Shown here: one piece after another, positions 1 to 64,000 of the stretch
Position numbering within the stretch: position 1 is the first letter of the stretch
Layout of the letters: each line of letters opens with the position of its first letter
Source of the DNA: Treponemataceae bacterium
GTDB lineage: Bacteria; Spirochaetota; Spirochaetia; Treponematales; Rectinemataceae
Reading direction: 5' to 3'
NCBI GenBank assembly: GCA_963678065.2
Contig: CAXXVZ010000005.1
Span: forward strand, 864,001-928,000
Length of the DNA: 64,000 nucleotides
Position numbers: made by a program

Positions 1-3000
1 TTGCGACGATGGCGCGAGCATCGGCGAACGCCATTGTGCCTGAGCGGAATGAGCGACAGCGAGTGGAGCGAATGGCCGAAGAGGGAGCCTGCGACCGATG
101 AGCGTGAACAGCGCTGTTAGTTGCAGTCGTGACCTTCAAGCGCGCTTGGATGGGGAGACTTGTCTCCTCATCCAATACTCTATCTTGCGCGCGTTCTTCT
201 CTTCCTCTTTTCTTAACCCTTATTTTTTTTCACGATTGCAACTAACGTTCTGCCTGTTTGCGACGATGGCGTGAGCATCGGCGAACGCCATTGTGCCTGA
301 GCGGAATGAGCAAAGCGAGTGTAGCGAATGGCCGAAGAGGGAGCCTGCGACCGATGAGCGTGAACAGCGCTGTTAGTTGCAGTCGTGACCTTCGAGCGCG
401 CTTGGATGAGGAGACTTGTCTCCCCATCCAATACTCTATCTTGCGCGCGTTCTTCTCTTCCTCTTTTCTTACCCTTATTTTTTTCTTTCACGATTGCAAC
501 TAACGTTCTGCCTGTTTGCGACGATGGCGCGAGCATCGGCGAGCGCCATTGTGCCTGAGCGGAATGAGCGCATGCGAGTGCAGCGAATAGCCGAAGAGGG
601 AGCCTGCGACCGATGAGCGTGAACAGCGCTGTTAGTTGCAGTCGTGACCTTCGAGCGCGCTTGGATGGGGAGACTTGTCTCCTCATCCAATACTATATCT
701 TGCGCGCGTTCTTCTCTTCCTCTTCTCTTACCCTTATTTTTCTCTTTCACGATTGCAACTAACGTTTCCGGCCTACGACGTTTGCGACCGCACAGGCGGG
801 CGCAAATGTGCCTGAGCGGAATGAGCGAATGCGAGTGAAGCGATGGCCGAAGAAGGAGCCGAAGGCGACTGATGAGCGTGGGCCGTGTTGTTATGCGCAG
901 TTATTTTTGAATATGTCATTAATAATATCAATCACTTCATTACTAAAACTATTTTGCTGATCTTCATTTATTATTATTTCCTTTTTTATTTTTACATAAA
1001 TCCAATCACTATCTTCGCAATACTCAAATCTCGAAGTATCAATATTCCAATTTTCATTTAGTGTATCTTTTTTCAGAGCGACACTAAGTATATATTCCCA
1101 ATATTGTGCGCCTTTATCTACCAAATTTAAATTCAAACCAATAAATATATCATCATTTTTTTTATACTTAATATATCGTCCTTTCGTTGTATCATCATAA
1201 AAATCATTAGCCCATGTTGATAACTCGAAATCCGATCCGATACCATCAATAATCATTTTCCCCGACTTCTCGACCAATTGAATAATCTTACACATAACCT
1301 TTAAAGATTCATGAATATCTTTTGGATTATAAAGCATAGCAACCTCATAAGGTGAAAGGATGGTATCAATTGATGATTTTATTATTAATTCTGATAACAG
1401 GTTTAGTGCTTCAGCTATAATATAAGAATCTTTTTGTAGATCATAACTGAACAAATATCTAATTAGGTCGTCCCAAATTACAATTTTAATAAACGAATAT
1501 TTTAATTTCGCATTTTCAATCTTATCTAGATGTTTATAGTTTTTAGGCAAAATAAATATTTGTCCTTTATAAGGCTTTTTACTATTTATTACCATTTCTG
1601 GATAACTATATATTTGATTGTCCTGCAATGGAGTGTCGATTCGAATTTTGTTTTCAATTAAGTAATAAGCTTTGCTATTAGTAATTACCAAATCAGGAAT
1701 GCCAGTATTATACCTTATCTGAGTAGAACAATGATTTAAATCTATAGAATCAATAGCATTCATATCTATTTTTAAATATGAAAATAATATATCTCTAAAA
1801 TATCTATATTTCAAAAGATTACATAAAATCTCTGTAGATGTATTTTCATCTTCTTTTGTTAGCCCATAAAATATTGATGTAGACCTATTCATATAATATA
1901 TATATATCCTTCAAAAATAATTGCGCATAACGTTCGCCTGCCTACGACGTTGTGGCGAGCATCGGCGAGCCACAATGTGCCTGAGCAGAATGAGCGATAG
2001 CGAGTGCAGCGAAGGCCGAAGAAGGAGCCGATAGGCGACTGATGAGCGTGGGCAGTGCTGTTAGCCGCTTTAGCAAAAGATCCTATCCATATCCCCATTC
2101 TCTGATACTTTTTCTTTTTCTATCTTTCCGTTATTCCCATATACTATATACGCATTTTTACTTTTATCACTTCGGATTATCTGATAGCGATTATTCTCAA
2201 GTACCAATGCACAATTGTCTTCAATCCCAAGAACTTTTTTGTCATGTGTCTTCATAAACTCTATAAACTTTCCTTCCTGCTCTCGCGCGTTAAGATGAGG
2301 ACTATGACATCCACGCATTAGTCCAAGTCCATTTATATATGAATAATTCCATCCATCAGTATTTCCAAAACTTTCTGTATCACTAACTCCATACTCAAAC
2401 CAACATACTGATCCTGCACTTAATCCACTTAAAATAGTCCCTTTTTGAGATGCTTTTACTAGTAAATCTTGTATCCCATATTTTCTCCAAATATCCAACA
2501 TCATTTTCGTATCACCACCACCAACATATATAATATCTGCCATTTTTATTTTTGTTTCTATTTCACAATCATCAATATTTCTGTCCTTTAAACATAACAC
2601 ATCACAGTTACAGCCAAGTTTCTTACCATATACTTCTTGCACAGTCTGAATATATCCTTCCGGTTCTCCACTGGCTGTAGGAATAAAAAGATGGTGAGGA
2701 GATTTCTTTGAACACTTTTCGACAATATAACTATCGATCTCGAATGTTTCACCTGTGCGGATTTCTCCTCCACCAATGGCAATGATTATACTCATGTGGA
2801 ACTATTCCTCTCCATCTTTTGCTATTGCGGCTAACGTTCTGCCTGTTTACGACGATGGCGTGAGCATCGGCGAGCGCCATTGTGCCTGAGCGGAATGAGC
2901 GCATGCGAGTGCAGCGATGGCCGAAGAGGGAGCCTGCGACCGATGAGCGTGAACAGCGCTGTTAGTTGCAGTCGTGACCTTCGAGCGCGCTTGGATGGGG

Positions 3001-63000: not shown

Positions 63001-64000
63001 GGCCTGCGACGTTTTGGTGAGCATCGGCGAACCAAAATGTGCCTGAATGGAACGAGCGCATGCGAGTGGAATGAAGGCCGAAGAAGGAGCCAAAGGCGAC
63101 TGATGAGCGTGGGCCGCGGTGTTAGACGACGTTTTTCAGGAAATCATTTATAAATATGTCTTTCCAGAATTTAGTATAGTCATATTTTTCTTTCTCGATT
63201 GTTATATCGCTTTTTTTTATAAATTCATACAAAAATGCAGAACATATTTCAAATAGTACCCAAAATTGGATATTAACCATTTTTTTTCTCTCATTAATAT
63301 CTGTCATTTGAGAATTTTGTAACAAATTCAAATACTCACAATGAGCATAACTTGATAAATATGAATACAGGAATGAGCTTTGATAAGGAGTAACATTCAT
63401 TATTTTCATTATGTTTTTCCATCCAGGTCTCCATTTTCCTCTATTTTTGTATTCTGCTTTTTGATCTTTAGGTAATATTTTAAAACAATTATTATTGTAT
63501 ACTTTTTTTTCAATTTCGATAATTGCATTTTTTTCTTGTTTTAGTTTTTCAATTCCATCGGCATCTAATGGAATAAAGTGTTGTCTTGTAAGCATCCCCT
63601 CTCGTTCCCAGCTATAATATCTAAATTCCAATTCTTCATTATTTTTGGAATCAATATAGATATAGTAAAATAATAATACTGTTTCTAAAGTTGCTCTATT
63701 TATTGTAAGTATTGCTGAATAATCTTGTACCTTAACTTGTATTTTCCCATCATCAAGATTGGATCCATTTCGCAATGTACACATCGTAATAAAATGACAA
63801 TATATCTTGATAAAAAATTCATAGCCATAGGCTGTAATCCTATCAGGTATTGTTTTTTTATTTTGAATAGCCTTATCCACTTTATCAAATATTTGCATAA
63901 ACTGTACAATTTCATTATCAATATCAATTTTATTAGGATCCATAATCTCTCCTGAAAAATGTCGTCTAACGTTCGCCTGCCTACGACGTTTTGTCCCGCA

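Follow-up and report, generated by a model that had tools for sequence, protein, structure and literature searches.

Cassette-specific extended terminal repeats in an integron-like array beside a tyrosine recombinase that lacks the I2 insertion

Why should the two ends of a gene cassette be complementary to each other over some 22 nucleotides, in a sequence that changes from one cassette to the next? The question is raised by an array on contig C5 of a Treponemataceae bacterium, part of which occupies the window, the 64,000-nucleotide stretch analysed here (1..64000), with 76 intervals; the array head lies outside it. This array resembles integrons: single-gene cassettes, with gene-less ones among them, stand behind a tyrosine recombinase gene, their GTT/AAC-bounded sites are predicted to fold on the bottom strand and, as judged from sequence, move with the cassette as its 3' site, and a putative attI-like site adjoins the recombinase gene. 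The genes of the window are mostly co-directional on the minus strand at a GC of 0.36–0.41, IS elements are common in the array, and the cargo was mixed among the 24 proteins scanned. GC skew on C5 was too noisy for calling the leading strand.

We anchored the cassettes of C5 independently and obtained 170 intervals giving 93 distinct end-pairs, 87 from gene-sized cassettes and six from short gene-less types (54 copies). The survey's finding, that each cassette carries its own terminal inverted repeats of about 22 bp, was confirmed: 81 of the 87 distinct gene-sized cassettes matched at no fewer than 7 of the 10 positions 13–22, whereas 2 of 108 junctions with a neighbour did so, as did 1.7% of 7482 end pairs drawn at random. 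Identity over positions 13–20 in these 87 cassettes was 0.87–0.99 to the own end, 0.19–0.38 to the neighbour and 0.25–0.33 at random; the whole segment 13–22 is cassette-specific (random-pair identity 0.23–0.33). Inside the window, 46 of 48 gene-sized intervals scored at least 7. As an example, the cassette at 890-1931 has a 3' arm (R'' side, 890..911) that contains the gene's stop codon and is complementary, except at position 11, to the 5' arm (R' side, 1910..1931), where the half-site motif of positions 2–12 is followed by the cassette-specific segment 13–22, a candidate clamp. The end first called 5' corresponds to the gene's 3' end, because most genes of the window are encoded on its minus strand. 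The next attC core (1932..2059) travels with the cassette at 2060..2835, whose arms (2060-2081 and 2814-2835) are mismatched at positions 10 and 11. The inner stem of the core lies behind an asymmetric loop, mostly 4 nt by 6–7 nt; the 76 cores of the window measure 125–136 nt, counting AAC and GTT.

The short gene-less cassettes (28 in the window, 54 of the 170 intervals on the contig) behave differently from this, since all 54 copies pair perfectly at positions 12–17 and the pairing ends there, as in the cassette at 116..246, paired as far as position 17. The most abundant cassette has the shortest arms. Cassette ends always fall at the GTTA/TAAC recombination core and polarity is uniform, A11 always being found in the 5' arm. 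A fixed mismatch had been reported at positions 10 and 11; it is fixed at position 11, but position 10 matches in 40%. Among the 81 cassettes, position 11 was A/G in 71 and A/T in 10, and was never corrected to a match. Read on the non-coding strand, the fixed pair is a T.G wobble, whereas the coding strand shows A.C or A.A. Outside positions 10–11 the wobbles leaned only weakly towards the bottom strand (12 bottom, 4 top and 21 other; p=0.08). An AGA/TCT motif was enriched at the stem base (31/75 and 43/75, against backgrounds of 0.08 and 0.17).

We then looked at how the arms change. Nine homologous cassette pairs showed no one-sided and one two-sided change in the arms where 20.3 were expected, and 11 in the flanks where 15.6 were expected; these sequence comparisons indicate that the arms are under purifying selection. 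One related pair has a double change at positions 14–15 that is present in both arms. The survey had proposed a constraint on the recombination or the making of cassettes, and the substitution pattern supports it as an ongoing one. Core identity was 0.91 downstream, 0.82 upstream and 0.81 at random, which points to each cassette being linked to, and mobile with, its 3' core. Copies of a cassette share neighbours no more than by chance, and block duplication was rejected on this ground as the source of the repeats.

Folding supported the outer stem that had been suggested for attC in the excised circle: the mean energy was −46.0 kcal/mol for the circle form against −31.0 kcal/mol for the array form, the circle being lower in 104 of 106 cases. 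The bottom strand folded better than the top in 106/106, and top-strand pairing was also strong. Mini-hairpins with GNA loops, which are stable in DNA, were distributed between bottom and top strands 43:2 in cores, 42:4 at cassette ends and 18:18 in bodies. The half-site was fully paired in 87 of 93 own-end pairs but in only 24 of 145 array junctions with a neighbour, with pairing probabilities of 0.99 and 0.42, respectively; when one array-form site was folded locally, shuffled sequences did equally well (z −0.52). For the first 21 eligible cassettes of the window we folded whole cassettes, an equilibrium calculation that ignores SSB and kinetics and likely over-rates long-range pairing. Long-range pairing of the own arms was predicted in 14 of 17 gene-sized cassettes, with a fourth helix too in 8 of the 17, and the arms stayed unpaired in 3 of the 17 and in 3 of 4 short cassettes. 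Own-end pairing is thus predicted by these models to build a four-way junction in the array.

The gene next to the array head (C5:931895-933076, minus strand) is read towards the array and encodes a 393-aa tyrosine recombinase with a HARP-like N-domain followed by SAM-like and catalytic domains; we assign it to the array from its adjacency. Alignment with the IntI of the C3 integron of this genome leaves a gap at the I2 insertion; a pattern count gives 58–59 residues against 100 where the pattern matched, and profile TIGR02249 gives 197.3 bits, below its cut-off of 265. By these two tests, insertion and integron-integrase cut-off, the protein sequence is not that of an integron integrase, so that the extended arms belong to an integron-like class rather than to IntI integrons. 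A structure search matched XerA, VchIntIA and other tyrosine recombinases; the N-domain had no separate match among the matches listed, and its HARP match (residues 23–60, E 1.5e-5) is just under the cut-off, in a region well folded in the model. The nearest named relatives are from Rectinemataceae and Spirochaetota, and relatives on Bacteroidota plasmids are 42–44% identical over the part searched.

About 310 nt behind this gene and likewise on the minus strand, at C5:931560-931587, lies a putative attI with the layout 11+6+11, which is that described for dif (PMC5357621). When a matrix of cassette positions 2–12 was applied to 15 spirochaete first-cassette rows, the best inverted match lay upstream at a distance of exactly 6 nt in 14 of them, the one exception following a core instead of an attI; the left attI half-site of the present genome (G000) itself scores poorly (−9.6). 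Positions 2–12 look like an Xer-type half-site and 13–22 like a clamp, and such a half-site would explain the first 12 positions.

The C3 IntI array, from which the survey had already found the repeats absent, scored 1–3 of 10 in 9/9 intervals, its own-end pairing reaching about position 8. Absence had likewise been reported for arrays of another family of the order, but the feature is not restricted to one family: f4 and f6 carry shorter arms (stem end about 18, against a median of 22–23 in f1) behind the same kind of recombinase. A Rufibacter plasmid array shows the A/G signature of position 11 in 7/7 intervals, and the signature is also found around tet(X3) on a plasmid. Arms in Bacteroidota reach only position 14–15 and those of the most abundant C5 cassette are the shortest, so that the class can do without a long clamp. 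Across these arrays, extended arms track the loss of the insertion and not the HARP domain. Cassettes of the relatives were detected by a rule requiring pairing at positions 12–17, and only unbroken tiles of 9, 5, 5, 5, 4, 4, 4, 3 and 2 cassettes are free of this detection bias. A search of genome contigs with a single protein query gave 2 loci, neither with arms; a Persicobacter plasmid locus had no convincing arms, and several fetched loci had no array or ended at a contig break. A pattern scan of metagenomes returned mostly chance hits (110 of 119 anchors without a partner, 5 at 2–4 and 4 at 10/10, the last being two overlapping loci of one contig). Four contig-only sequencing runs contained no joints, and contigs cannot resolve circles across the repeated core.

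We consider it fairly probable, predicting function from sequence and folds, that the ends act as a clamp: a double-stranded Xer-type half-site would form on the folded non-coding strand when the two ends of one cassette come together, and not otherwise. With a single strand exchange, the recombinase without I2 would place excised single-stranded circles into the dif-like attI, and stored cassettes would be mostly locked. The recombinase footprint would be positions 2–12. A G or T at position 11 of the 3' arm would confine the T.G wobble of T11 to the bottom strand and so set the choice of strand, and A11 may be fixed in the 5' arm because this arm completes attI; at positions 13–22 pairing would be needed without the sequence being read. 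Excision may run as circle insertion in microscopic reverse, the arms pairing across the gene and forming a four-way junction together with the core on either side; alternatively, it may take the classical route, the arms re-pairing and releasing the circle. Whole-core replacements, which we found, are compatible with either route.

That the stem at positions 13–22 is instead a binding site for the HARP-like N-domain, which would read the single-strand/double-strand fork at the stem base, agrees with the profile match and its well-folded model, with the longer stems of f1, which has the domain, and with the AGA/TCT enrichment. However, the C3 IntI also has this domain (E 1.2e-12) and its cassettes lack extended arms, while the f4 and f6 recombinases, beside arm-bearing arrays, do not match the profile. 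Having the domain is thus not enough for extended arms and, as far as this profile tells, not needed either; we hold this reading to be unlikely, and the domain could still tune stem length. The near-perfect pairing of very diverse sequences, and block changes that hit both arms at once, could also be the footprint of copying, one end having served as template for the other, either when the cassette was made or in recurrent hairpin-guided correction, and the stem itself being unselected. Yet copying keeps arms equal, not unchanged: about half of the roughly 20 expected mutations should have been two-sided and one was seen, and position 11 escaped correction. Arms common to unrelated genes (see below) were, moreover, not copied from each gene's own flank, and we regard a copying origin as improbable.

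Pairing of the arms in the transcript, marking cassette RNAs for processing or reverse transcription, would fit arms that enclose the gene, the strong top-strand pairing, and the position of the frame hairpins, which precede the ribosome site and follow the stop codon. It seems quite improbable, since position 11 on the coding strand is A.C or A.A and not G.U, the GNA-loop hairpins are on the non-coding strand, and gene-less cassettes have arms as well. Least of all do we believe that a transposase acts on the ends as terminal repeats of a transposon or MITE. Inverted repeats some 22 bp long, in an array where IS elements are common, invite the idea, but positions 13–22 differ among cassettes with no family-wide terminal repeat, the ends always lie at the GTTA/TAAC core, polarity is single, and each cassette carries a 3' core.

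Frames shared by unrelated genes bear on the way in which cassettes are made. A 3' frame at 48333..48425 (arm, spacer and a small hairpin near 48381-48401) and the 5' frame of the same cassette at 49140..49207 (arm and a hairpin near 49152-49170) are common to cassettes of L014, L019 and L051 with unrelated genes; a flavin-reductase-like gene (48429..49031) lies inside the frame here, and a metallo-beta-lactamase-fold gene in L019. A second frame family is represented by the cassette at 36274..37217 (hairpin motifs at 36320 and 37153), whose arms are 9/10 identical to those of an L012 cassette (3199-3731) with an HNH gene inside. Hairpin motifs also frame the cassette at 60666..62021 (at 60712 and 61957), a longer version of which, sharing its ends, is found at 31658-34494, and one motif is present in direct orientation at both ends of the cassette at 62149..62994 (at 62189 and 62931). 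Outside the array, hits in G000 numbered 2/11 for motif A and 0/5 for motif B, and one frame-hairpin motif was absent from a phylum draw of 300 other genomes in which the family tally shows no f1; the hairpins therefore seem not to be repeats of the chromosome at large. The presence of unrelated genes in common end frames across genera is new here, and our literature search, which subscription papers mostly escaped, gave no description of such frames. They are a possible clue to cassette origin, and in some pairs the sharing could also mean that the genes have diverged past detection. New cassettes would likely come about when the gene within an existing frame is exchanged for another, since arms, core and flanking hairpins form one continuous module in the circle.

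We tentatively propose, as a possibility that we do not rate as probable, a second class of integron, in which cassettes would be self-closing single-stranded elements whose private stem builds a ready-made Holliday junction, resolved by an ordinary Xer-type enzyme in one exchange without I2, and in which reusable end frames (arms, core and two flanking DNA hairpins) would be the module that receives new genes. C5 differs from integrons in its recombinase, which lacks I2 and is read towards the array, in pairing to about position 22, in the fixed wobble at 11 and in the dif-like attI. In integrons, as on C5, the variable bases of R' are described as not necessarily complementary within the array (PMC5371416), and our search, limited for subscription papers, gave no description of extended ends, in agreement with the survey. 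Nor, judged by where the inner stem lies, do C5 cores have the geometry of IntI attC sites, with a symmetric spacer and an L box that has extrahelical bases: in 104 of 141 distinct cores the best-pairing inner stem is set off by 4 nt from AAC and by 6–7 nt from GTT, and all the relatives that were scored have an asymmetric stem as well. Chromosomal integrons of Treponema are cassette arrays in related spirochaetes, but are defined by intI, and the accessible text of that report has nothing on extended cassette ends (PMC3607928). By its description, the closest published system is rAID-1 of Bacteroidales, in which a XerD-family recombinase precedes low-GC, co-directional genes whose intergenic repeats are called "reminiscent of" integrons (bioRxiv 10.1101/471110). 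C5 shares the downstream genes that help define it (at least two, co-directional, GC ≤41%), and a Bacteroidota plasmid array with a related recombinase has C5's position-11 signature. The definition of rAID-1 also names a XerD-like recombinase >44% identical to BF9343_RS08045. Its host is one of the Bacteroidales and its cargo serves interbacterial immunity, whereas C5 is spirochaetal with mixed cargo, and the accessible description gives no cassette boundaries, terminal repeats, attI or mechanism (bioRxiv 10.1101/471110). CTX-phi, an IMEX, offers by analogy a precedent for an I2-less Xer enzyme acting on a folded strand: via XerC, its folded single strand is joined to a dif-type duplex in one exchange that replication resolves, and the integrated form loses the fold (PMC5357621, PMC4792948). 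But CTX-phi has no recombinase of its own and borrows the host XerCD at chromosomal dif for one phage; C5 has a dedicated adjacent recombinase, its own attI-like site and some 170 cassettes that each have a stem of their own.

I2 and the extrahelical bases are described as the block on a harmful second exchange, CTX-phi being the sole similar reaction named in the accessible text (PMC4792948). How a recombinase without I2 can run a cassette array has now become testable, and a private stem with one wobble, together with a dif-like attI, would be a natural Xer–integron intermediate. The making of cassettes, called "largely unknown" (PMC5371416), is testable too, as frames of unrelated genes across genera give defined junctions; if the proposal of a second class is true, these frames are a visible record of cassette creation. 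The position-11 signature is a simple means of finding such arrays, and its presence in Bacteroidota and around tet(X3) on a plasmid suggests that the class may have carried clinically relevant genes.

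On contig C5, we anchored the cassette repeat at its left and at its right end independently, which gave 170 intervals and 93 distinct end-pairs, namely 87 gene-sized pairs and six short gene-less types present as 54 copies. When one end of each gene-sized cassette was compared with the reverse complement of the other (positions counted inward from the GTT), identity was 0.87–0.99 at positions 13–20, 0.77 at 21, 0.60 at 22 and at background level from 24; at positions 13–20 it was 0.19–0.38 for neighbours and 0.25–0.33 for random pairs. At least 7 of 10 matches at positions 13–22 were found in 81/87 gene-sized own pairs (46 of 48 intervals within the window, C5:864001-928000); among neighbour junctions this level was reached by 2/108 and among random pairs by 1.7%, so the survey's finding that a cassette's own ends are complementary and those of neighbours are not was borne out. 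The six low scorers comprise one with a one-base indel, two with short stems and three intervals of 2.3–4.6 kb with unlike ends, probably merged intervals; anchoring also left four over-long cores and four irregular junctions. All 54 short copies were paired at positions 12–17. The canonical IntI array of contig C3 of the same genome scored 1–3 of 10 in 9/9 intervals, in agreement with the absence reported there. Of the mismatch described as fixed at positions 10–11, only the second half stood: position 11 was always mismatched (in the 81 good cassettes, A in every 5' arm, with G in 71 and T in 10 of the other arms), whereas position 10 matched in 40% of the 87 gene-sized cassettes.

Most cassette genes lie on the minus strand; the majority end ahead of the arm, some use the TAA of the terminal core as stop, and the 5' arm is for the most part non-coding. 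Two C5 cassettes (window coordinates −50348 and −76796) have near-perfect outer stems with positions 5–6 mismatched; the 5' arm of one of them starts like that of the short cassette, possibly reflecting a crossover deeper in the half-site. Five attC cores (C5:761758, 787944, 796576, 822810 and 835345) are split by insertions at least about 2.5 kb long, four of which start with related ends and which we take to resemble IS21-type elements.

Complementary ends could be a mere footprint of how cassettes arose or could serve a function now. In nine homologous cassette pairs, one per family, with bodies 2–18% diverged, the variable arm positions carried no one-sided and one two-sided change against 20.3 expected from the body rate, and the next 10 bases beyond the arms carried 11 against 15.6 expected; in more distant pairs, changes occurred jointly in both arms. 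The complementary ends of C5 cassettes are real and under selection, and this substitution pattern argues for arms that function at present rather than for a footprint only.

Folding of 106 distinct junctions gave −46.0 kcal/mol for the bottom strand (window plus) with a cassette's own ends joined as in the circle and −31.0 in the array, the circle form being the stabler, as had been claimed; for the top strand the values were −38.1 and −25.0 kcal/mol, respectively, and the bottom was lower at 106/106 junctions. Pairing probability at positions 2–4 was 0.99 in the circle form versus 0.42 in the array form, and the half-site was fully paired in 87/93 own pairs versus 24/145 array junctions. GNA-loop mini-hairpins, which are unusually stable in DNA, were distributed bottom to top 43:2 in 141 distinct cores, 42:4 in cassette ends and 18:18 in bodies. 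At position 11 the bottom strand has T.G and the top strand A.C; mismatches elsewhere leaned weakly the same way (12 bottom, 4 top, 21 other; p 0.08).

The array is headed, just outside the window, by a 393-aa tyrosine recombinase gene reading toward the cassettes (C5:931895-933076, minus) and by attI (C5:931560-931587, minus), whose 11+6+11 layout is shared with dif as described in the available part of PMC5357621. The enzyme comprises a HARP match slightly below cut-off (residues 23–60) together with SAM-like and catalytic domains; it is without the IntI insertion and scores under the integron-integrase cut-off. Its predicted structure best matched XerA and VchIntIA, its closest named relatives are from Rectinemataceae and Spirochaetota, and matches with an E-value of 1e-40 or lower occurred in 46/151 genomes of the order. 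When the sequence ahead of the first cassette was searched with a matrix of cassette positions 2–12, the top-scoring inverted site lay 6 nt upstream of that cassette in 14/15 spirochaete rows, the exception being preceded by a core; the left attI half of C5 itself matched weakly, and two Bacteroidota-type rows scored best at 7 nt. In rows L051, L155 and L157 the stretch covered contained no recombinase; attI-like sites, L155:11383 and L157:4551 (minus), stand at the head of cassette tiles that are possibly secondary arrays. Positions 2–12 would be the recombinase-binding half-site, with A11 kept fixed because the 5' arm would complete attI, and we lean, with some reserve, towards a model in which the ends combine this half-site with a clamp.

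Since cassette detection in relatives demanded pairing at positions 12–17, only unbroken tiles are free of bias. These held nine consecutive cassettes at locus L014, five each at L012, L155 and L163, four each at L026, L051 and L169, three at L030 and two at L167, all scoring 7–10, while core sequences differed widely among these genomes. The median stem end was 22 in this genome (n=83), 23 in relatives of its family (n=24), 18.5 in family f4 (n=18) and 18 in f6 (n=1). A Rufibacter plasmid array with a related recombinase upstream had A/G at position 11 in 7/7 intervals and pairing to 14–15 in five (ends picked by eye). The tet(X3) unit of plasmid pHH1107 (L033:10889-12098), which sits behind a short related recombinase gene, bears the position 11 signature at its bounding ends, with positions 5–7 unpaired; similar recombinase genes occur on many Acinetobacter plasmids. 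An N-domain profile matched the recombinases of this genome's own family and the C3 IntI (E 1.2e-12), and did not match the f4 and f6 recombinases beside arm-bearing arrays; the arms thus go with the absence of the IntI insertion, not with HARP. The C3 IntI too has a HARP-like N-domain, and most cassettes of its array (C3:99420-117810) open with a small hairpin directly after the R' box.

Cassette copies shared the core downstream of them (0.91 identity in 49 pairs; same type in 37/39 copies of the main short cassette) and not the one upstream (0.82 in 44 pairs, versus 0.81 at random), and sharing of neighbours, assessed in 50 copy pairs of 17 families, did not exceed that in shuffles. This pattern indicates that cassettes move one at a time, with the 5' GTT as the crossover point. 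Three families with bodies 0.81–0.91 identical have cores that diverge (identity 0.63–0.79) starting at the second base past AAC, suggesting that exchange occasionally takes place on the opposite side. In whole-cassette folds of the bottom strand, both cores included, covering the first 21 eligible window cassettes, own arms paired in 14/17 gene-sized and 1/4 short cassettes, and the two outer neighbours also paired in 8/17 gene-sized ones, by a method that favours long-range pairs. Such pairing is predicted to form a four-way junction; if this were resolved at the two G/TT points, the cassette would leave as a circle and the array would be resealed, with both products paired from the outset. 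We consider this route less certain than the clamp and half-site model.

Gene-less cassettes, which have a GC-rich hairpin as well as a purine-rich tract, make up 54/170 C5 intervals, with one more in first position behind attI (C5:931571). In its middle, the main one (window 116-246 and 53 other short C5 copies) matches the 3' and 5' flanks of a type of gene-bearing cassette joined directly to each other, as though the arm-core-arm hairpin had been left out entirely (score 44, best of 75; maximum 38 in 200 shuffles); this is possibly a scar or an empty insertion site. A second family of 507–724 bp (window 16504-17039, 22266-22896, 50906-51540 and others on C5), with at least nine diverged copies, lacks coding-strand ORFs longer than about 50 aa. 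A 3055-bp cassette (C5 ~773260-776315, window −90739) carries a 416-aa ORF that resembles a group II intron reverse transcriptase.

Near-identical arms often enclose unrelated genes. One frame, whose 5' and 3' parts measure about 65 and 90 nt (aligning at 77% and 79% identity), surrounds a flavin-reductase-like gene in this genome, a metallo-beta-lactamase-fold gene at L019 and, at L014 and L051, genes for proteins with no Pfam match; other similar-arm pairs enclose Schlafen and GNAT genes, or HNH and an unknown gene. There were 41 arm pairs sharing at least 8 of 10 positions versus 4.8 in column shuffles, a count that takes in some unmerged relatives and low-complexity runs, and, conversely, two genes 53% identical have very different arms. 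In a motif-free test on 110 body families, 32 had strong hairpins at both ends, 9 at a single end and 69 at neither, with mid-body controls at 4/110; the table for this genome alone reads 8, 6, 2, 56 (p 1e-5). Since frame, arms and core form one continuous module in the circle, the simplest reading is that new cassettes would arise by gene replacement inside it, which we likewise consider less certain than the model of the ends.

The literature searched yielded no description of extended ends, and the available parts of PMC3607928 and PMC8352920 do not mention them; that of PMC5371416 deals with the 7-bp R box alone and describes how cassettes form as largely unknown. The accessible portion of PMC4792948 ties the block on second exchange to the IntI-specific insertion I2 and extrahelical bases, naming CTX-phi as the only similar reaction. 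The C5 array belongs to an integron-like class, one that functions as integrons do yet falls outside IntI.
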